Origin: a virus
Lineage: Duplodnaviria > Heunggongvirae > Uroviricota > Caudoviricetes
Reading direction: 5' to 3' (one strand)
IMG/VR virus record: IMGVR_UViG_2585427754_000004
Length of the DNA stretch: 64,000 nucleotides
The translations under genes were made by a program, and so were the position numbers. Position 1 is the first letter of the stretch; each line of letters begins with the position of its first letter. Shown in pieces: positions 2,523 through 55,081 of the stretch. The notes beneath the pieces were generated by a model. That model ran no database searches. It was not told where the DNA came from and saw nothing but the letters and a program-made list of their open reading frames with translations.

Positions 2523-2774
2523 ATGCTAGGCAGCCTGATGACAAAGCTAAAAGTTGCTTTGATTACGCTGGCTGCCGTTCTTTTCGTTCTTGTCGGCGCT
2601 TACACGATGGGCGGGAATGCGGCGCGACGAGCAATGGAAGAGAAGGCAAAACAGGAAGACAGAAAACGACTTCAAAACACAGTGAAAGTGGTGAATGAGA
2701 CGAGCAGTAAAATACGTCAGAAAGATGCTTCTGCCGTTCATCGTGAGTTGTATGATAAGTGGGTGCGTCATTAA
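2523..2774 (+). CDS. Inner-membrane spanin (Rz-like)
   Basis: N-terminal transmembrane segment followed by a charged coiled-coil region; overlaps the next gene in the classic Rz/Rz1 arrangement. Confidence 0.5.
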   Translation: MLGSLMTKLKVALITLAAVLFVLVGAYTMGGNAARRAMEEKAKQEDRKRLQNTVKVVNETSSKIRQKDASAVHRELYDKWVRH

Positions 2775-2910
2775 ACCACAAACAGCCAGCGTGTTGTTCT
2801 GCGATGGGGCTGAGCCTATCTATATCAGCAATAATGATGTAATGACTGAAGAAACCGAACGCCAAATCCTTTTTCACAATACGATGGGAGAGAGGGTTTG
2901 TGGTTGGTGA
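2695..2910 (+). CDS. Outer-membrane lipoprotein spanin (Rz1-like), start embedded in the Rz-like gene
   Basis: Signal peptide with lipobox (MISGC), short mature region with Cys residues, +1-frame overlap with 2523..2774. Confidence 0.5.
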   Translation: MRRAVKYVRKMLLPFIVSCMISGCVIKPQTASVLFCDGAEPIYISNNDVMTEETERQILFHNTMGERVCGW

Positions 2911-2942
2911 TGTCGAAGTTCCCCTCAAATGAGGGGAACACA

Positions 2943-3464
2943 TTATTCGTCGAACAATTTTTCGATAGATTTTGTAGGATAGAACAAAGAACGCTCGTTG
3001 TTACCAACCAGCTGGATAAAGCCTAAACTTTTATAAAACGCCTTGGCTTTGTCATTTAACGCCTCAACGAAAAGTCCATGAATGCCTACAGCAAGAGATG
3101 CATTGTACACAACGCGCATTGCATGTGTTACAAGCATTGAGCCAAATCCTTGACCTTGAAGGGACTTGTCCAAAGCCAGCCTACCCAAAGTAACACTTGG
3201 AACATTCCGATAAGGAACCTTCTTTTGTTTGCTTCTTGAAGGTAAGGACTCCTTTTCAAAACAACTACCTGACAAAGTGTAATATCCTAACACTTTTGGC
3301 CTTTCTTCTTGAGTGCAAAGCACATAAGCACGAAGAATTTTTCCCTCATGCTGCCTTTTTAAGTGGTTGGCTAAAAAGGCGTTTAGTGACTCTTCGCCGC
3401 AATCAAAACCGTTTAGATCATAATCTTTCTCTCCAGAGAAAATCTCTATCGTTGTATTGCTCAC
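2943..3464 (-). CDS. GNAT-family acetyltransferase toxin (TacT/KacT-like) of a type II toxin-antitoxin pair
   Basis: 173 aa with acetyl-CoA-binding signature QGQGFGSMLV; 7 bp downstream of a DUF1778-type antitoxin gene on the same strand. Confidence 0.75.
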   Translation of the reverse strand: MSNTTIEIFSGEKDYDLNGFDCGEESLNAFLANHLKRQHEGKILRAYVLCTQEERPKVLGYYTLSGSCFEKESLPSRSKQKKVPYRNVPSVTLGRLALDKSLQGQGFGSMLVTHAMRVVYNASLAVGIHGLFVEALNDKAKAFYKSLGFIQLVGNNERSLFYPTKSIEKLFDE

Positions 3465-3471
3465 GAGTAAA

Positions 3472-3741
3472 CTACTCCATGCTTTTCAGACGATCAGCAG
3501 CTCGTTTCAGCTTGTCGTTCGGTGCCGGAGGATTGCTTATAGCGTCCATAACCAGATTCCAGGATTCTTCATTCAGAACTAGTCTACGGTGTTGCTCTAT
3601 AACTTTCACGGCACGTTCAGATGCACTGCTAACCATAAACTGAGTAATGCTCTGGTTAGACATTGCGGCAGCTTCCTCGATGATGCTTTTATCGTCATCG
3701 GTTAATCTCAAATCGATGCGCTGCTTTTTTAGTGCTGACAT
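3472..3741 (-). CDS. DUF1778 ribbon-helix-helix antitoxin (TacA/KacA-like)
   Basis: Translation MSALKKQRIDLRLTDDDKSIIEEAA ... NPPAPNDKL is typical of DUF1778 antitoxins. ATG at 3741 (minus strand) preceded by AGGAGG; ORF track extends to 3780. Confidence 0.7.
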   Translation of the reverse strand: MSALKKQRIDLRLTDDDKSIIEEAAAMSNQSITQFMVSSASERAVKVIEQHRRLVLNEESWNLVMDAISNPPAPNDKLKRAADRLKSME

Positions 3742-3779: not shown

Positions 3780-4059
3780 ATCTCCTCTGTTCAAACTGAG
3801 TTTTCGACTCAAAAATTACTTTAAAAGGCTATAGCCCATTACGTGTGCATTATCAAATTGTGTACGGCATATCACCGTACTTGTAATATAGATGTCATTG
3901 TTACTTTTTTCAACAGACAAATACAAGCTATGTTTGCCAATTGTTAATCACAACCTACCATTTAACCTTTACACCGCAGCCGTAGGCATTTAGGCTATAT
4001 CACATATAAGAAAACAAGTTGTTTCAGACGATAATTATATACGCAAAGGGAACTCTCCA

Positions 4060-4728
4060 ATGACCAAGATCTTTGTGGTTGGCGGCACAAAGGGCGGGCC
4101 TGGCAAATCCACCGTTGCCCAGCAAATTGCCGTTTGCCTGAAAGTCAAAAAGAAGAAGAAGGTTTATATTACCGATATAGATATTCAGCGCACGACAACG
4201 AGCTGGTGTGAAGACCGTCGACAGAACGAAGACCTTGAGCTGATTCCTTTTGCATACGTTCAGGATGACATCATTAAGCACCTAAAATCGCTTCAGGGTA
4301 GAGCTGAGTTTGTAGTGGTAGATGCTGGTGGCTTCGACTCCGAAATTCAGCGACAAGCGATGCTGATGGCTGACGTTATCATTATCCCGCTGCGTCCTAA
4401 GCGTCGTGATTTGAAATCTTTACGTGACATCGATCCTATTATCGACAATGTTCGCAATGTAAACGATAAAGTGAAGGTCCGCGCGGTCATGAACCAGTGC
4501 CCGGCTTTGCCATCACAAGTGTCTCGCATTCTGGCGGCTAAAGAGATTGTTGAGACGTTTGGAATCGAGTCTGCGCCAGTCAATCTATATAACCGCAACG
4601 TCTATGATGATGCGGAAGAGTCTGGTCGCTCTATCTTTGAAATGACCGGTAGCGAGCGCGACAAAAAGGCGGAAGCCGAGTTTGAAGAATTTGTAGATTA
4701 TCTGTTGAGTCTGGAGGAAGAAGAATAA
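4060..4728 (+). CDS. parA: ParA-family partition ATPase (small type Ib)
   Basis: Deviant Walker A GGTKGGPGKST at the N-terminus; 222 aa; followed by a small RHH protein. Confidence 0.75.
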   Translation: MTKIFVVGGTKGGPGKSTVAQQIAVCLKVKKKKKVYITDIDIQRTTTSWCEDRRQNEDLELIPFAYVQDDIIKHLKSLQGRAEFVVVDAGGFDSEIQRQAMLMADVIIIPLRPKRRDLKSLRDIDPIIDNVRNVNDKVKVRAVMNQCPALPSQVSRILAAKEIVETFGIESAPVNLYNRNVYDDAEESGRSIFEMTGSERDKKAEAEFEEFVDYLLSLEEEE

Positions 4729-6932: not shown

Positions 6933-6975
6933 CTAATACTAGAAAACAATTTGTTTAAAAAACAAAGGAAAGCAC

Positions 6976-8316
6976 ATGACCGAACTTTGCCATACAGGAC
7001 GCGGGCTGTCCGAAGAGTTTGATGAAGATTTTCAGAACAGATTGACGGCCTATTTTTGTCGTGATCACGAGTTTCTTACTCGTGCTGGAGATCTGGTTGT
7101 ACCTAGCCAATTTGCCAATGCGGCCAATGCCATATTGGTTAATATGGTTTCGGGCTATTACCGTATGTACAAGAGCGCGCCCTCTTCATCTGCGATTCTG
7201 GATATGCTTAAGCGTGCGAAACGCGATAAGACTATCCGTGAGGAACTATTCGCCGATGTTGTTGCTGCGTTTAAGCGCATCCTTGCAGAAAAATTGTCTG
7301 ATACCTCGTACATGGTTGACCAGGTATCAACCTTCGCAAAAAGTGTAGCGTTTGATGATGCTCTGATTAAGGCTGCTGAACTGAAAGAGAAAGGCGACTT
7401 TCAGGGGGCGATGGCAATCATGGCCAAGGTTCAGCAGATTGGATCGAACGAAGCGACCGGAATCTATGACTACTACACCTCCGCAAGTGAGCGATTGAAG
7501 GCGCGTGAATATGAGGCTTCAGAGGAGTATGTGCCAAACAGCATTACAACTGGACTCCCTCTGCTCGATAGGTTGCTGTACCAAAAAGGCTGGGCGAAGC
7601 GTGAAATGGTGCTCTTCATGGGGTTCGCTAAATCCGGTAAATCGACCGCAATGGGTGAGTTTTCCATAAACGCAACACTTGCTGGCTACAATGTTCTGTA
7701 TCTCTCGCTGGAGGTTCACACCACCATTTTATCCGACCGTTTTGATGCAAGATTGTCGGAGACAGAAATGTCCAAGCTGGTGGAACGGCGCGATGAGGTT
7801 CATCGTAAGTTGGCAGAGTTGGGAGCCACGAAGGGGATTGGTAGTTTGTGGGTGGTTGAGCGTCCGTCAGGAAGTATGTCACCGGCAGATCTGGACCGTA
7901 TGCTTAACAGCATGAAAGCCAACGGCATGGTACCTGACATGGTTGTTGTCGACTACGCAGATTTGATGCGTGCCAGTTATGACCTTCGTGATGATCGCGC
8001 CAACATTCGTAGTATCTACACCGATTTACGTGCTCTTTATGACAAGCATAACGTTGCTGGGATCACGGCATCGCAGACAAACCGTGAAGGTGGCGCGTCA
8101 GAAGTTGCCACAATGATGCACGCTGCCGACAACATCGAAAAAGTACGTATTGCTGACCTGGTAATAACGATCAACAAAACCGAAGAAGAAGAAGCGAAAG
8201 GAGAGGCTCGTCTCTACTTTGCTGGTTCACGTAACCAGCAGGGAGGGATCAGCATTCGCGTTAAACAAAACCTCGAACAAATGCGCTTCATTGAGCGAAT
8301 CTTAGACGTTACCTAA
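6976..8316 (+). CDS. DnaB-family replicative DNA helicase
   Basis: Walker A GFAKSGKST, Walker B VVVDYADLM, RecA-like C-terminal domain; conserved upstream AAACAAnTTGTTT motif and shared translation-initiation sequence. Confidence 0.7.
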   Translation: MTELCHTGRGLSEEFDEDFQNRLTAYFCRDHEFLTRAGDLVVPSQFANAANAILVNMVSGYYRMYKSAPSSSAILDMLKRAKRDKTIREELFADVVAAFKRILAEKLSDTSYMVDQVSTFAKSVAFDDALIKAAELKEKGDFQGAMAIMAKVQQIGSNEATGIYDYYTSASERLKAREYEASEEYVPNSITTGLPLLDRLLYQKGWAKREMVLFMGFAKSGKSTAMGEFSINATLAGYNVLYLSLEVHTTILSDRFDARLSETEMSKLVERRDEVHRKLAELGATKGIGSLWVVERPSGSMSPADLDRMLNSMKANGMVPDMVVVDYADLMRASYDLRDDRANIRSIYTDLRALYDKHNVAGITASQTNREGGASEVATMMHAADNIEKVRIADLVITINKTEEEEAKGEARLYFAGSRNQQGGISIRVKQNLEQMRFIERILDVT

Positions 8317-17502: not shown

Positions 17503-17600
17503 CCCCTCTTCTCCCTGCGCGAATGGCTTAGTTCCCTGTTCGCGCAGTGCTACATTAAACACACTAGTAAATAATTTGTTTTCATAACAAAGGATTAGCC

Positions 17601-19709
17601 ATGTCTAAAAAACGTTCCATCAAAGAGGTTCAGGACTTCCGTGACAGTGTAAAACGAGTAGTCGCTCTCCTTTCAGGTAAAAACATCCCTGTTGCAGAAC
17701 GAGGGGACGACGCTTATGTACGCTATAACGATGATGGAGAGCCAATTCTCGTAAACATCCCATCAATCCCGGATAACGCAACACCGGCATTGATGAATGC
17801 TGTGCGCGGATTTCTCGATCATGAGGTTGCTCACATTTTGTTTACCGATATTCGTGTGTCCAACAAAATGAGAGAAAAAGGACGCGTTCCTTCCTGGTCG
17901 CTATGGAATGCCTTAGAAGACGTGTTCATCGAGCGAAAAATGGGTCAGGTCTTTAACGGAACAAGACGTAATCTGATGGCAACTCAGCGCCTTATAATCG
18001 AAAAAGTCTTTAAACCAAAGGCTTCAGAGGCTATTGCTTATTGTGGCAAAGATCAGCGCGCGCTTTTTCTAAACTTCTTTCTCTGTCCGGTTGTAAGAGC
18101 CTGGGATGGCCAAGCACCGTTCGTAGATTTCATGGATGAATATTGGCCTGTCATTGAGAAACCAATTTCATTATTAAAAGAACATGGTATCGATGTGGCC
18201 GTGCGTAACATGTCTTGCACCGAGGATTGTGTAAAGGTGGCTGCGACCATAGCTAAGATCCTCAAAGACACTGAAAGTGAAAGCAAAGGTAAGGAGTCAG
18301 CTCCGGGAAAAACTTCCGATCCTTCAGACGCTGACCAGACGGATGCCTCTGGAGAAAACAATGAAGACAACGAAGATCATGAGACACCCTCATCGTTAGA
18401 TAATCACAAATCTATTAAATCAGAGTCACATAGTAAGCACAAACATGATAATAACGACAGTGATGATTCAGATAATCCTGAATCATCAGAAACAATATTC
18501 GATGATACAGAAAATGATAAAGCGGTATCAGATTCTGATGCTTCTGATAACGCGGCGTCAGAATCATTAACCGCTGACCACGAAAAAAGAAAAACGACAG
18601 AAGACGGCTCTTCAGACATTCCAACTCCGTCAAAAATGAGTCTGGAAGAGGCTTTAGAGGAGTTGGATAGCATGGAAGATGAAGTCGGAGGCATGACAGA
18701 AGATGCGCTATCCGAAACGATTAAAAGCGAGTTAACAGAAAGCTCGAAAAGCGAATACAGGCCATACAATCGCTCATACGACTTCATCGGCTCGATTGAT
18801 CAGGCAGAAGCCCATATCAAACGGCTTATTAAAACATTCTCCGATATTGATTTAGGTGGATATCCAATCAGCCGTTATCGCATCGTTCCTGAAGGCAACC
18901 AACTCTTCGACAAATATATTGAAAAGCACCTTTCGTCAGGTGTTTCGTCGACGCTGGCAAAAGACCTGGAACGTGCAATAGCAAGCAGAAACAGAGTTCA
19001 GTTTATACCTGGCCAGCGTCGGGGGCGCATTCATGGTTCAAGTATCTACAGATTAACAATGAATGATGATCGCGTGTTTCGTAAAAAAGAAGAATCTAAA
19101 GCCGTTAACGCCTGTGTTCAACAAGTGATTGATTTATCGGGTTCAATGAGTGGCGAAACGATAAAACTAGCTCTTGCAAGTGCATATACCATCGCCGATG
19201 CACTTGATCGAATAAATGTTCCCAACATTATCACCGGCTTCACTACATTTGGCAGTCATATGGCAGCAGGAGAACTTAAGGCTATCAAATATGAGTTCTC
19301 TCGCTTTGAATCTTTAATGCTACCTATCATCAAAAATTGGAATGAAAAAGCAAATTCTCGCGAAGTTCGCTCACGTATGGGGTGCGTAGGCTACACATTC
19401 CCACTTCTTAATAACGTGGATGGTGAAAGCATAGCCAGCCTTGCATCGTTATTTTCCGGTCGCTTGGAGGACAGGAAGATCATGCTTGTTCTGAGTGATG
19501 GCGCGCCGTGGGCTGTTGGGAGAGGTTTTGACGCTCATTTGCGTTCAGTTGCGAAGCAAATTGAAACGCAGACTGACATTGATTTGATGGCAATTGGCAT
19601 CATGACTGATGCACCGGAGAGATTTTACTCAAATCATGCCCTGGTAACGAGCGTTGATAGTCTTGGTTCATCTGTAGTTACTGAACTATCTCGTATCATT
19701 TTAAAGTGA
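17601..19709 (+). CDS. von Willebrand factor A (vWA) domain protein with long acidic Ser/Asp-rich insertion (CobT-like)
   Basis: MIDAS motif DLSGSMSGET in the C-terminal half; roughly 150-aa low-complexity acidic region in the middle; conserved upstream motif. Confidence 0.55.
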   Translation: MSKKRSIKEVQDFRDSVKRVVALLSGKNIPVAERGDDAYVRYNDDGEPILVNIPSIPDNATPALMNAVRGFLDHEVAHILFTDIRVSNKMREKGRVPSWSLWNALEDVFIERKMGQVFNGTRRNLMATQRLIIEKVFKPKASEAIAYCGKDQRALFLNFFLCPVVRAWDGQAPFVDFMDEYWPVIEKPISLLKEHGIDVAVRNMSCTEDCVKVAATIAKILKDTESESKGKESAPGKTSDPSDADQTDASGENNEDNEDHETPSSLDNHKSIKSESHSKHKHDNNDSDDSDNPESSETIFDDTENDKAVSDSDASDNAASESLTADHEKRKTTEDGSSDIPTPSKMSLEEALEELDSMEDEVGGMTEDALSETIKSELTESSKSEYRPYNRSYDFIGSIDQAEAHIKRLIKTFSDIDLGGYPISRYRIVPEGNQLFDKYIEKHLSSGVSSTLAKDLERAIASRNRVQFIPGQRRGRIHGSSIYRLTMNDDRVFRKKEESKAVNACVQQVIDLSGSMSGETIKLALASAYTIADALDRINVPNIITGFTTFGSHMAAGELKAIKYEFSRFESLMLPIIKNWNEKANSREVRSRMGCVGYTFPLLNNVDGESIASLASLFSGRLEDRKIMLVLSDGAPWAVGRGFDAHLRSVAKQIETQTDIDLMAIGIMTDAPERFYSNHALVTSVDSLGSSVVTELSRIILK

Positions 19710-31785: not shown

Positions 31786-31834
31786 TCGCAATTATCTTAT
31801 TAAGAAAACAATTTGTTTAAAAGGATAAGAAAAC

Positions 31835-32260
31835 ATGACAGCTATTAAGAAACTCTACGATGCCGCAAACGTGGCTCTGGATGTTATTGATGATGAAGTA
31901 GCAAAAGGCTTTCCTGAACCTGATTGGGCGCATCAGCTACGAAACGCTATCGCAGAAATGACCCCACCAGATCCAACCCCCGACGAGACAGACTGGCAGC
32001 GATTCATCCGTATGTACGCTCAGGAAATAGGTCCAACGCCAACGGCAGAGCAGGCAATGCTGCTGAAATACTTCAAAGAGGCGGGAGAGGATTTACCAAT
32101 TGATGACTCAGCATATTGGTTCCACTGCGCATGGCGTAAGTATGACGTGATATTCACACAAGGCATGGGAAGCAAAGATATGGTTGTGTGGCATCTACTC
32201 CATATAGACACAGCCGTTGACAGAGTTATTGAACAGTTTTTCCCTAAACAAGAAGATTGA
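31835..32260 (+). CDS. Hypothetical protein
   Basis: 141-aa ORF with conserved upstream AAACAATTTGTTTAAAA motif. Confidence 0.35.
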   Translation: MTAIKKLYDAANVALDVIDDEVAKGFPEPDWAHQLRNAIAEMTPPDPTPDETDWQRFIRMYAQEIGPTPTAEQAMLLKYFKEAGEDLPIDDSAYWFHCAWRKYDVIFTQGMGSKDMVVWHLLHIDTAVDRVIEQFFPKQED

Positions 32261-43510: not shown

Positions 43511-43574
43511 TGTAAGCCTTGTTTAAACACATAAGATAACAACTTGTTTAAACACATCAAAAAAGGAAAAACAC

Positions 43575-44717
43575 ATGTCATATTCAACGTTCCGTTTGGG
43601 TGCTAATGATGCAACCAAAGAGCCTATGTTCCTCGGACAATCTGTCAACGTGGCACGTTACGATCAGCAAAAATACCGTGATTTTGAAAAGTTGATTGAA
43701 CGTCAATTGTCTTTCTTCTGGCGGCCGGAAGAAGTTGATATTTCGAGTGATCGTATCGACTTCAACACGAAGCTGCGGGACCACGAACGTCACATTTTTC
43801 TGAGCAATCTCCGTTATCAAACGTTACTCGATTCAGTTCAGGGACGTAGCCCAAATGCAACGCTTCTGCCGCTTATCTCTATTCCTGAACTGGAAACGTG
43901 GGTTGAAACATGGTCTTTCTCTGAGACTATCCATAGCCGCAGCTACACCCACATTATTCGTGGCATGGTGGACGATCCGAGTATTGTTTTTGACGGTATT
44001 GTTACGGATGAAGAAATCATCAACCGAGCGATCAGTATCTCTGCTGAATATGACAGGCTTTATGGGATGACCTGCGAGCGCCAGTCGTTAGGTGAGAAAG
44101 AGTTTGAACGTCTGTACGTAAATGAATATGGCTGGGAGCCATACCCTTTGCACCGTCAGCTTTTCCGCACGTTGGTGTCCATTAATGCGCTTGAGGCGAT
44201 CCGTTTCTATGTAAGTTTTGCATGTACGTTTGCCTTTGGCGAACGGAAGTTGCTTGAGGGTAACACCAAAATTATGCGCTTTATTGCCCGTGATGAAGCT
44301 CTGCATTGCGAAGGAACTGAACGCATGATCCGCTTCATGCGTACCGGTCGCGAAGGCTTATTGTGGAAAGAGATTGCTGCTGATGAAGAAAACGTCATTT
44401 ACGACACCATGAAATCAGTCGCCGAACAAGAAATGAACTGGGCAGACTATCTCTTCAAAGACGGTTCGATGATTGGTTTAAACGCGGATATTCTGAAGAC
44501 CTATGTAAAATACCGCACCAATCTGGCTATGAATCGTCTTGGCCTGAAGGCTTTATTTCCAGAAGTTACCACAGATCCGCTGGTCTGGATGAACAAGTGG
44601 TTGTTAACCGACACACTGCAAATTGCACCACAAGAGGCAGAGCAAAGCACATATCTGGTAGGTCAGATCGATTCTACCGTGGATAAGGCTTCTCTAAGCC
44701 AGTTTGCAGACCTGTAA
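43575..44717 (+). CDS. nrdB: Ribonucleotide reductase class Ia beta subunit
   Basis: Di-iron/tyrosyl radical motifs ([23 protein letters not shown]); 380 aa; no intron interruption seen. Confidence 0.9.
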
Positions 44718-51682: not shown

Positions 51683-52263
51683 TAGATAAGTACAAACTAT
51701 TCATAAAGTGAATTGTAAGTGCTAAGATCTGATAGTTTCCAGTCGTAGACTGGAGGCTCGACCTGATGGGTGGGGGTAAGCGTCACTGGCGTCAGGTTTA
51801 AAAAAGCTCACTACCAGCGTAGAACCGGTGCCGTATAGGTGTCGGGGAAGGGGGAACCAAAGTGAGCAGAGACAAGGGTCACTTTATGATTGTCGAGTCT
51901 GGGGTGTTTCGAGAGGTTGAATCCAGTACTCCCCTTCATAAAGTGTGGGAAGATCTCGGTTCTGGGGTGCTGTCATCCATAACTTCCCAAGTCTAAGCTG
52001 GCAGTAGACTTAGACCATAGCTTTTCAGGTTATGAAACGACCAGGTTGGTGAGGAATTTTATACTCACCTCCCTGGGAGAGTATTACCTGAAAAGACAAC
52101 CTCTCACTTCGTTCGAGGTGAACTTCACTCACTTCGTTCGTTCAGTTCAGGTTTATAAAAACCTGTTCTGGGAAGTAATTTGTTTATTTTAATAATTATT
52201 AACACGCACGCGTGTGCGCACGCGCGAGGAAAAATCGGCGCGGCGCTTGATTCAGGAGTTTAT
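51683..52263. other. 580-bp non-coding region with G-rich blocks, a 13-bp direct repeat and an alternating GC palindrome
   Basis: No convincing ORF. CTCACTTCGTTCG at 52103 and 52128; ACACGCACGCGTGTGCGCACGCGCG at 52201..52229; GTCTGGGG repeats. Confidence 0.4.
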
Positions 52264-52854
52264 ATGACGACGAAGACACCAGCCCGATCGCAAGCAAAAA
52301 CTCGCAAAAAAGACAAAAACAAAAATTCTCCCCGCACCAATCCCACAACGCCTGTCGTAGAGTTCAATCCCCAGCTCAAAACCGTGAAAATCTTTAGTGA
52401 TGGCTCTTGCCTTAAAAATCCGGGTGGCCCGGGCGGTTACGGTATCGTTCTCCAGTATCGTGGTGAGGAACGCGAGTTCTCAGATGGTTTTCATAGCACC
52501 ACCAATAACCGCATGGAGATGATGGGGGCACTTATCGGGCTGGAGCGTTTGAAATATCCATGCAACGTTATTTTGCACTCTGATAGCCAGTATCTGAAAA
52601 ACGGCATGACACAGTGGATGAAATGGTGGAAACGCAATGGATGGATGACTTCTGACAAAAAACCGGTAAAGAATGTTGATCTGTGGAAGCGTCTGGATGA
52701 GGCCGCAAGTCGACATAATGTTCGCTGGAAGTGGGTTAAAGGTCACGCCGGGCATCGTGAAAATGAAATATGTGATCGACTCGCGAAGATCGCAGCTTTT
52801 TCAGCAGCAGATATGCCTCACAAGAAAGATATTGGTTTTGTTTATAACAAATAG
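52264..52854 (+). CDS. rnhA: Ribonuclease HI
   Basis: FSDGSC ... GGPGGYG ... HSDSQY ... [18 protein letters not shown] matches RNase H catalytic motifs. Start at MTTKT; ORF track begins at 52180. Confidence 0.8.
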
Positions 52855-53002: not shown

Positions 53003-53497
53003 ATGGCACGTCAAACCTATTTCACTTCTGCAACTAAACGTCCTCGTTCACTACGTCAAATTTTGGCCGAATTATTTAGCGGTCGTGTTCTGTCACGTCT
53101 TGATGAACTGGAGACTACCGTTCGGTTGCTGAATGAACGTTTAGATAAGCAAGCGTCAGTTGTTGCGAACGTGGGGGCGATTGTTACCTCTGGTTCTTCA
53201 CACCAAGCGAAAAATGCACGGCCTTTAGTGAAGGAGAAAAACAACAAGGACAGTTCGAATGGAAAATTTTCAAAGAAAGAGGCTGAAACCAATGGCCTAC
53301 GTTCTCATTATAGTTTCACTGGCGACGGTAGCTGTTCCAGCCGGCCAGAGCCTTTTGATGCCGGATTCATCCATCACCACACCTCCGTCGACGACAATTA
53401 CCACCACTCCAGTAGAGCGTCCTGTCACTCTGGATGGGATGACGGTGGATGCGATACCTCAATTTCATCCAGTTACTCAGGATCATGTTGTGACTAA
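53003..53497 (+). CDS. Hypothetical protein (frame conflict with 53292..53510)
   Basis: N-terminal 90 aa look coiled-coil; C-terminal part is Ser/Cys/His-rich and overlaps a second frame that encodes a signal-peptide protein. Confidence 0.25.
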   Translation: MARQTYFTSATKRPRSLRQILAELFSGRVLSRLDELETTVRLLNERLDKQASVVANVGAIVTSGSSHQAKNARPLVKEKNNKDSSNGKFSKKEAETNGLRSHYSFTGDGSCSSRPEPFDAGFIHHHTSVDDNYHHSSRASCHSGWDDGGCDTSISSSYSGSCCD

Positions 53498-53695: not shown

Positions 53696-53788
53696 CGGCT
53701 GTTAGTGCATATGCATTGACCATCTTTGCGTAAGCAATTTATGAAACTATAAAACAACTTGTTTTGACAAATAACAAAAGGAAAACAC

Positions 53789-54214
53789 ATGTTAGGTTTC
53801 TTCAAAAAGAAAACTCGTAAAGCTGTTATCGAAGTCAAAAAAATGGAGAACCGTGATGCGGTTGAGGCCACCGTGTGGGGCGCGTACATGATCTCCTATG
53901 CCGACGGCACATGTGACGCAAAAGAAATTGCCATTCTTGAGAAGACAATTGCAGCTCTGCCTGCGTTTTCTCCGTTTGCTGGTGAAATTGCCCAAATGAG
54001 CGCCAATATCCGTGCTCGTTACGAAGCGTCCCCTCGTTCTGCTAATGCACAGGCTATTCGTGAGCTGTCTGATATTGCGGGTACTCCAGAGGCGGTCGAT
54101 GTTCTGTGTCTGTGCCTTGATATTGCCGATCAGGACGGCATTGGCGAACAAGAAGAGCAGGCACTTAAAAAGATCGCCCAGGCGCTTCAGTTGTCACTGG
54201 ATGCTTATCTCTAA
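53789..54214 (+). CDS. TerB-like domain protein
   Basis: MLGFFKKK ... ISYADGTCDAKEIAILEK ... CLCLDIADQDGIGEQEEQALKKIA follows the TerB two-repeat pattern; conserved upstream motif. Confidence 0.45.
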   Translation: MLGFFKKKTRKAVIEVKKMENRDAVEATVWGAYMISYADGTCDAKEIAILEKTIAALPAFSPFAGEIAQMSANIRARYEASPRSANAQAIRELSDIAGTPEAVDVLCLCLDIADQDGIGEQEEQALKKIAQALQLSLDAYL

Positions 54215-54374
54215 TGCTTGAGAGATTCCGGCTTGTGATCGTCATTGCTCTTCTGGTGATGGCGGTGTTGGTGGATTTTACGGGAAAGATGATGTCTGTC
54301 ATTTCTGATGGCGTCCTCATTGGTCTGGCGATCTACTTCGCTTATCCGCTAGTCCGTAAAGCAACGTGTTAATG

Positions 54375-54403
54375 ACAAGGGCCAAATGGCCCTTGTGTTT
54401 CGT
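54375..54403 (+). terminator. Rho-independent terminator
   Basis: ACAAGGGCC-aaat-GGCCCTTGT followed by GTTTCGTT. Confidence 0.6.
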
Positions 54404-54511
54404 TGACCGAAATAGAGAGTTTGCACCTTTACGTTTAGCTTGCTCCCCTTTTATGCCACATCACAATAAAGCCAATAAGAAAACAACTTGTTTAAGCATT
54501 AGGAAAAACAC

Positions 54512-55081
54512 ATGTGCAAGAAATGCAAAGCGATAGCTGATGAACAAAACGCCTTATTCGAAGAAATGGATGCTAATGAACTGGTCAAAATGTTAGCCAT
54601 TCTTCGAGGAATAGAAGACGTTTCCATATTTGAGAGAGTGGTTACAGCACTTAATTTTGAGTCCACCTTTGAAGAGCCAACTCAGGTTGTAGCTTTAGCA
54701 CATCATTTCGGTGTTCATTATCTTGCTGAAAAAGAGCGCGCTGATAAGTTGCAGGCGACTTTGGATATGGTGAGCGAGACTCAACGAACTGATGACACTA
54801 ACAAGAGTGAGGCGATTATTGCCAGCAAAGATCGTGAAATTGCTGGGCTTAAATCCTCTCTAACGATGTTGATGTCTGCGTTCAATCTTATGTCTTCTCA
54901 GGCGGGTTATAAAATGCCATCACTAAACAGCGATGATCCGATGGCCGTTCGTCAGCTTTTGGGAGCAATGGCCGACCAACTCGACGACACAAAGAGTCGG
55001 CTTGAAGACATGATGCGTGAGTTAAGCCATCGACATAACCTCGCAACACAGCCACACAAAGCCTTTCAAAGCTCTAATTGA
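54512..55081 (+). CDS. Hypothetical protein
   Basis: 189-aa ORF with conserved upstream motif. Confidence 0.35.
   Translation: MCKKCKAIADEQNALFEEMDANELVKMLAILRGIEDVSIFERVVTALNFESTFEEPTQVVALAHHFGVHYLAEKERADKLQATLDMVSETQRTDDTNKSEAIIASKDREIAGLKSSLTMLMSAFNLMSSQAGYKMPSLNSDDPMAVRQLLGAMADQLDDTKSRLEDMMRELSHRHNLATQPHKAFQSSN

Follow-up and report, generated by a model that had tools for sequence, protein, structure and literature searches.

Organization of the tciA-tciB locus

The DNA analyzed in this study, a stretch of 64 kb referred to below as the window, is an E. coli phage-plasmid of the SSU5-like type, ~99% identical to pLF82/phage Cyrano. An initial annotation of its sequence had described a stand-alone TerB-like gene at positions 53789-54214, preceded by a conserved motif and situated in a right-hand accessory block. 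The open reading frame (ORF) exists as described, and the motif, AAACAACTTGTTT, is indeed present 24 nucleotides before its start codon. The gene is the first member of an overlapping pair, tciA and tciB, and the features of the locus are as follows:

53716-53745, plus strand: candidate weak sigma-70 promoter (TTGACC, an 18-nucleotide spacer and TATGAA), read by eye
53752-53764, unstranded: 13-basepair palindrome AAACAACTTGTTT, 24 nucleotides 5' of the tciA ATG
53778-53782, plus strand: Shine-Dalgarno sequence of tciA (AAGGA), 6 nucleotides 5' of the ATG, read from the sequence
53789-54214, plus strand: tciA, with an ATG start, encoding 141 amino acids, stop codon included in the coordinates
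54214-54372, plus strand: tciB, encoding 52 amino acids with two hydrophobic segments (DUF3927)
54375-54396, plus strand: terminator-like hairpin with a 9-basepair stem (6 GC pairs), directly 3' of tciB
54481-54493, unstranded: next copy of the palindrome AAACAACTTGTTT, 18 nucleotides 5' of a backbone gene encoding 189 amino acids (54512-55081)

The end of tciA and the beginning of tciB are merged in the sequence TAATG, such that the final base of the tciA stop codon is also the first base of tciB. This overlap between the tciB ATG and the tciA stop codon implies that translation of the two genes would be coupled. Taken with the hairpin at 54375-54396 and the palindrome at 54481 ahead of the following gene, it identifies the locus as a compact two-gene unit that is bounded by a palindrome of the phage backbone on one side and by the terminator-like hairpin on the other. 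The palindrome copy at 54481 marks the start of the next transcription unit. A scan for consensus promoters listed no sigma-70 promoter 5' of tciA, and the candidate -10 element that we identified by eye lacks the final T. If that candidate is used, transcription would begin close to the 5' edge of the palindrome at 53752-53764.

TciA belongs to the TerB family

The assignment of TciA to the TerB family, which the initial annotation had made from the sequence without database searches, held up under profile searches. TciA matched the Pfam TerB profile (PF05099) with 31.5 bits (curated cut-off 24.4; E 2.4e-7) across residues 33-136, and matched PHROG 632 (‘tellurite resistance’) over its full length with an E-value of 4.8e-63. 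An exhaustive HMMER search collected 179 representative relatives, nearly all of which are 140-150 amino acids long; all of the aligned full-length family members (103/103) matched Pfam TerB, and 26/103 also touched DUF533. The profile of the TciA family aligned with the structure of Klebsiella TerB (2JXU) with an E-value of 6.3e-28, such that profile positions 8-146 correspond to chain residues 11-150 of that protein. A search of PDB sequences using TciA alone as a single-sequence query returned nothing meaningful, 2JXU being found only with the family profile, and searches of TciA against NCBIfam and PADLOC gave no matches.

The AlphaFold model of TciA (pLDDT 93.3) is all-helical and comprises seven helices. 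Its top PDB match in Foldseek is the TerB-like protein PG1108 (2H5N; probability 1.0, TM 0.51-0.57), which is the best structural match to TciA but which, like DUF533/YebE, resembles it only at the level of the fold (18% sequence identity). The best viral fold matches are phage proteins of approximately the same length. Two ADG...E repeats (D39-G40-E46 and D116-G117-E122) form the most conserved alignment columns of the family, at 90% or more, and an N-terminal M-x-G-x-F-x-K-K motif is also conserved. Charge is distributed unevenly along the protein: the basic N-terminal helix (residues 1-22) carries a net charge of +6, and the remainder, corresponding to the acidic TerB domain, carries a net charge of -11.

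The probability that the ORF call or its TerB match is spurious is negligible in our view: the Pfam score obtained from the single sequence is only modest at 31.5 bits, and the single-sequence search of the PDB came back empty, but the idea is refuted by the full-length PHROG match, the profile match to 2JXU, the confidence of the AlphaFold model and the existence of hundreds of conserved TciA homologues that are accompanied by a conserved partner gene. We regard the identification of 53789-54372 as a TerB-family TciA/TciB pair as practically certain.

TciA is paired with a small membrane protein

The second protein of the pair, TciB, matched Pfam DUF3927 (1e-12) and PHROG 1470, ‘TciB-like’ (2.8e-21), and its hydropathy profile, with two hydrophobic segments, is that of a small membrane protein. 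The description of the TerB-like gene as stand-alone therefore does not stand, since tciB overlaps its stop codon and the neighborhood in relatives contains the pair throughout: a TciB-like ORF begins between -3 and +12 nucleotides from the tciA stop codon in each of 83/83 IMG/VR loci (mostly close relatives, to which about ten hand-checked distant phages can be added), and the two ORFs overlap by either 1 or 4 nucleotides in 80 of those 83. Scans that used distant phage TerB proteins as single-protein queries yielded between zero and two loci each, and a protein search with TciB returned only near-identical sequences. Beyond the close relatives, the pair is found at 30-40% TciA identity in the second allele of phage P1, in the lambdoid phage JLK-2012, in Salmonella N4-like phages, in Pantoea phage LIET2 and in Pseudomonas phage Nican01, and Erwinia phages, among them a jumbo phage, carry a divergent form of tciA-tciB. 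It is the TciA-TciB pair, and not a TerB protein by itself, that constitutes the functional unit.

In-frame fusions of TciA and TciB are occasionally found as single ORFs in databases. These are probably frameshift or assembly variants, and they fit a topology in which the C-terminus of TciA and the N-terminus of TciB lie on the same side of the membrane.

A different arrangement is present in Vibrio phage vB_VpaP-MS02, in which a TerB-like gene from the TciA family (35% identity to TciA) again adjoins the gene of a membrane protein. The partner in that phage is a 339-residue TerC-family protein (Pfam 3.6e-41) encoded directly upstream (375-1920 for the two genes), rather than a DUF3927 mini-protein encoded downstream, and no TciB is present at the locus. 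This hints that TciB and TerC may be alternative membrane partners of a TerB-like protein.

Small tciB genes have been overlooked in some phage annotations. Positions 2435-2617 of the Nican01 locus that we examined hold an unannotated ORF of 60 amino acids with a GTG start, directly after the TerB gene, and its product is a DUF3927/TciB homologue (Pfam 1.4e-8).

Distribution of tciA and comparison with phage P1

The 4-kb neighborhood of the pair is 98.8% identical to Escherichia phage Cyrano (equivalent to pLF82) and 99% identical to non-mobilizable plasmids of ~108 kb from E. coli and E. albertii. Cyrano has been described as an SSU5-like phage-plasmid that is induced by ciprofloxacin and that produces siphovirus particles. 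The two genes are annotated in Cyrano as ‘P1 TciA-like’ and ‘P1 TciB-like’, and are labeled by PGAP as ‘tellurite/colicin resistance protein’ (or ‘TerB family’) and ‘DUF3927 family protein’.

Copies of TciA that are 100% identical to that in the window are already annotated in plasmids, and homologues were found in 100 phage records and in 789 PLSDB plasmids (771/789 of them non-mobilizable). Among complete E. coli genomes, 209/5,426 (~4%) carry a homologue, and 211/213 copies are on plasmids, which places TciAB among the more widespread phage gene pairs. Homologues are also present in virulent N4-like and jumbo phages, and in lambdoid phages tciA-tciB is located between Q and the lysis genes. 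A TerB gene in a mobile element, which the initial annotation had considered unexpected, is thus anything but: P1 has an orthologue, and many phages and phage-plasmids carry the pair. tciA is an ordinary, already known gene that is annotated as TerB-family or TciA in hundreds of records, and the value of its identification here as a discovery is correspondingly small.

The closest described relative is the tciA-tciB-tciC locus of phage P1 (Lobocka et al. 2004 annotation; AF234173), the TciA of which is 78.7% identical to that of the window over 141 amino acids. Both elements are phage-plasmids, both have the same overlapping tciA-tciB layout with a DUF3927 TciB, and in both the pair lies 3' of an operator linked to lysogeny, this being the C1-controlled ban operator in P1 and, putatively, the palindrome in the window. 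The window differs from P1 in having the SSU5-type palindrome in place of the C1 operator and a terminator-like hairpin of its own, and in carrying tciAB without the ban operon and the flanking tRNA genes. It differs further in tciC, which follows in P1: no TciC-like ORF is present after tciB in the window, and a tblastn search of the window for TciC gave no match better than an E-value of 8.

Two genome records of P1 differ at this locus. Their tciA alleles are 78.7% and 35.4% identical to the protein of the window, and their tciB and tciC genes are near-identical, which indicates allelic replacement of tciA inside a single phage lineage.

We also observed that phage tRNA genes are frequently found within 3 kb of tciA. 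In P1 and JLK-2012 these encode tRNA-Asn/Thr; in approximately 9 of the 20 enterobacterial loci outside the SSU5 group that were scanned they encode tRNA-Thr(tgt), either alone or together with tRNA-Gly(tcc); in Erwinia and Pseudomonas phages tciA is found among tRNA arrays. The tRNA cluster of the window is ~40 kb from tciA, and the linkage is therefore partial and not obligatory.

A palindrome of the SSU5-type backbone precedes tciA

The sequence pattern AAACAANTTGTTT, which describes the palindrome 5' of tciA, has five exact copies in the window against an expectation of 0.01, a number that was reached in 0/100 shuffled sequences; two further copies with one mismatch are also located at gene starts. 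In addition to the two copies at the tciA-tciB locus, these sites are:

4012-4024, unstranded: palindrome copy 5' of a ParA-like gene (4060-4728)
6944-6956, unstranded: palindrome copy 5' of the replicative helicase gene (6976-8316)
17569-17581, unstranded: palindrome copy with one mismatch, 5' of a gene encoding 702 amino acids (17601-19709)
31806-31818, unstranded: palindrome copy 5' of a gene encoding 141 amino acids (31835-32260)
43537-43549, unstranded: palindrome copy with one mismatch, 5' of nrdB, the gene of the ribonucleotide reductase beta subunit (43575-44717)

The palindrome AAACAAnTTGTTT is positioned 16-35 nucleotides 5' of start codons, and is kept in relatives. Across the entire genome of Cyrano we found 18 sites that deviate from the palindrome at no more than one position, which precede early, replication, partition and accessory genes and two of which are located 5' of the small terminase gene; none of the 18 falls between positions 83 and 29,258, the region of the structural and lysis genes.

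The palindrome is flanked asymmetrically: AAGA directly adjoins it on the 5' side, and an AATTA-like element lies 12-16 nucleotides upstream. Several sites display a clear extended -10 element (TGnGATAAT) approximately 13 nucleotides upstream, and because of that spacing the palindrome would occupy about +7 to +19 of the transcript, a position appropriate for an operator. An alternative reading of the palindrome as an RNA hairpin was rejected, as its six A/U-rich pairs and one-base loop would not form a stable stem. A translation-initiation context, AAAGGAAAACACATG, is nearly identical at five of the genes led by the motif (those beginning at 6976, 17601, 43575, 53789 and 54512), and the promoter, operator and ribosome binding site may together represent a reusable module.

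The palindrome belongs to the backbone and does not travel with the pair. In Klebsiella relatives it is conserved 5' of tciA in flanks that have diverged, and in SSU5 it occupies the same slot in the absence of tciAB. It is missing 5' of all tciA copies of 88% identity or less, which belong to lambdoid and other phages, and P1 lacks it as well. Because it is kept in SSU5 without the pair and is missing from the P1 and lambdoid copies of tciAB, we conclude from these comparisons that the palindrome is a predicted regulatory element of the SSU5-type backbone, behind which tciAB is carried as cargo. The proposal of the initial annotation that tciA is regulated like the core genes is plausible in this light, given a palindrome that is common to parA, the helicase gene, nrdB and other early genes.

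The slot that holds tciAB (53752-54372) lies between conserved backbone genes encoding 62 and 189 amino acids. In SSU5 the same slot contains an anti-repressor (Ant) gene (2774-3671 of the examined locus), and its description as part of an accessory block is accordingly fair. Both cassettes sit behind the same palindrome and between the same backbone genes, which suggests exchange of cassettes at a fixed regulatory site, with tciAB here and Ant in SSU5. We take the palindrome to mark early transcription units into which such cargo is swapped.

The full set of sites looks like an undescribed early-promoter and operator system of SSU5-like phage-plasmids. To our knowledge, the palindrome does not match the LexA box or another host-factor site. 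Our search of the literature found no paper that describes the palindrome AAACAAnTTGTTT.

tciAB is not part of a ter operon

TciA is homologous along the full chain (E 6.3e-28) to the TerB proteins of terZABCDE operons (Klebsiella 2JXU; R478 and pTE53), is close to them in size and has their helical fold and ADG...E repeats. It differs from them in being paired with a membrane protein of 52 amino acids, in being carried by a phage and in being silent in overnight lysogens (described below). The annotation of the entire genome of the near-identical phage Cyrano includes no TerZ, TerA, TerC, TerD or TerE, and a tblastn search of the window with TerC found nothing. tciAB is not part of a ter operon.

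Published RNA-seq data for strain LF82 provide an indication of when the pair is expressed. Values in that study are given as log2(5+FPKM), for which the floor is 2.32; in overnight LB cultures, CYRAN_85 (TciA) gave values of 2.32 and 3.18 and CYRAN_86 (TciB) gave values of 2.32 and 2.32, and both genes are outside the published list of morons expressed in Cyrano lysogens. In the non-induced columns labeled B1, which we read as a short regrowth condition, the Cyrano tciAB transcripts reach ~5.4-6.0, about tenfold higher, along with those of neighboring genes 83-87. Given that increase, tciAB may also be expressed in growing lysogens.

These observations bear on the explanation that is implied by current database labels, namely lysogenic conversion, in which a resident tciAB would provide its host with resistance to tellurite or colicins, with tolerance of oxidative stress or with inhibition of other phages. 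Homology of TciA to the TerB of operons that confer such phenotypes, the label ‘tellurite/colicin resistance protein’ itself, a proposal to this effect for P1-like elements in a review, and the elevated transcripts in the one non-induced condition (B1) are all in keeping with it. Tellurite resistance, however, has been reported to require terB, terC, terD and terE together, and the partners are lacking both from the window (TerC) and from the annotation of Cyrano (TerC, TerD and TerE). Transcripts of tciAB lie at the detection floor in lysogens grown overnight, the two genes are outside the set of Cyrano morons, and those carriers of homologues that are strictly virulent have no lysogens to convert. 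We consider lysogenic conversion unlikely. The absence of the ter partners, the silence in overnight lysogens and the presence of homologues in virulent phages also indicate that the resistance label is probably misleading for tciA.

Comparison with defense systems

TerB domains are also found in the defense systems Shango and Bunzi, which TciA resembles in the domain itself and in a proposed association with the membrane, and from which it differs in being encoded by phages, virulent ones included. PADLOC gave no match for TciA, TciB or three other neighboring ORFs that were tested, and in the neighborhood of tciAB we found no helicase, ATPase or other partner of the Shango or Bunzi type, the annotated neighbors being backbone phage genes.

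A role in counter-defense would have TciA mimicking or titrating the TerB-domain components of the host (those of ter-operon phage inhibition, Shango or Bunzi), or masking a membrane signal that they monitor. The TerB-containing defense systems that have been validated are thought to survey the membrane, and terC contributes to phage resistance. The tciABC locus has moreover been described as one of eight hypervariable regions in P1-like elements, and alleles as dissimilar as those of P1 (~35% and 79% identical to the TciA of the window) form a pattern typical of arms-race loci; the presence of tciA in virulent phages points in the same direction. The lack of a PADLOC match, in contrast, implies that TciA is not close to the TerB proteins of defense systems, and counter-defense leaves the obligatory TciB partner unexplained. 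As an explanation in its own right we judge it to be quite improbable.

An action of tciAB on host cell division, suggested by a preprint on the P1 transcriptome that classes tciA, tciB and tciC, along with icd and kilA, among the genes of division control, is highly improbable, as that grouping is based on gene name only and our Pfam, PHROG and PDB sequence searches found no similarity to known division inhibitors.

A possible role of tciAB in lytic growth

We tentatively favor, with considerable reservation, the interpretation that tciAB is a membrane-tethered module of lytic growth and not a determinant of tellurite resistance. In the mechanism that we propose, TciB would tether the acidic TerB domain of TciA to the inner membrane on its cytoplasmic side, an attachment to which the basic N-terminal helix of TciA may contribute, and the acidic ADG...E repeats would probably bind a divalent cation. 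Binding of divalent cations by TerB domains was reportedly proposed by Anantharaman and co-workers in 2012. A link between the pair and the membrane is suggested by the hydropathy of TciB, by the division of charge within TciA, by the pairing with TerC in vB_VpaP-MS02 and by literature in which TerB is located at the membrane and forms a complex with TerC.

Transcription of tciAB would proceed from an early promoter of the SSU5 type, and the palindromic operator would keep its level low in the plasmid-prophage state. The pair would then act during lytic development, in homeostasis of the envelope or of ions, or in the exclusion of competitors. Several observations point to a lytic role: virulent phages carry the pair, the lambdoid copies are situated between Q and the lysis genes, the copy in P1 lies behind a C1 operator, and the copy in the window follows an early-type palindrome and stays silent in lysogens grown overnight. 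Any such role must be conditional, because CRISPRi knock-down of tciA, tciB and tciC in P1 caused no plating defect and the three genes were scored as non-essential. The mechanism is also weakened by the loss of the operon from approximately half of one P1 subgroup, by the raised Cyrano transcripts in B1 and by the poor quality of the sigma-70 elements 5' of tciA. TerC-type transporters of the host, membrane stress and the exclusion of competitors are possible targets, among which the data do not discriminate.

A more far-reaching version of this interpretation would describe tciAB as a widely shared lytic ‘membrane-state’ module, which either counters membrane-surveillance immunity based on TerB or on ter genes or blocks superinfection, and which SSU5-like phage-plasmids carry as one of several interchangeable cargoes behind the fixed palindromic operator of an undescribed, genome-wide early regulon. 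In that complete form we believe the proposal to be distinctly unlikely.

Reading frames upstream of the locus

The ORF at 53003-53497 (164 amino acids; PHROG 10411) is a backbone gene that is also present in SSU5; its product ends in a tail rich in Ser, Cys, His and Asp (...SSSYSGSCCD) and received no family assignment. The start listed for the RNase H ORF at 52180-52854 is a distant upstream TTG codon that would yield a protein of 224 amino acids. Public annotations of the same gene give ~197 amino acids, and translation probably does not include the long N-terminal extension.
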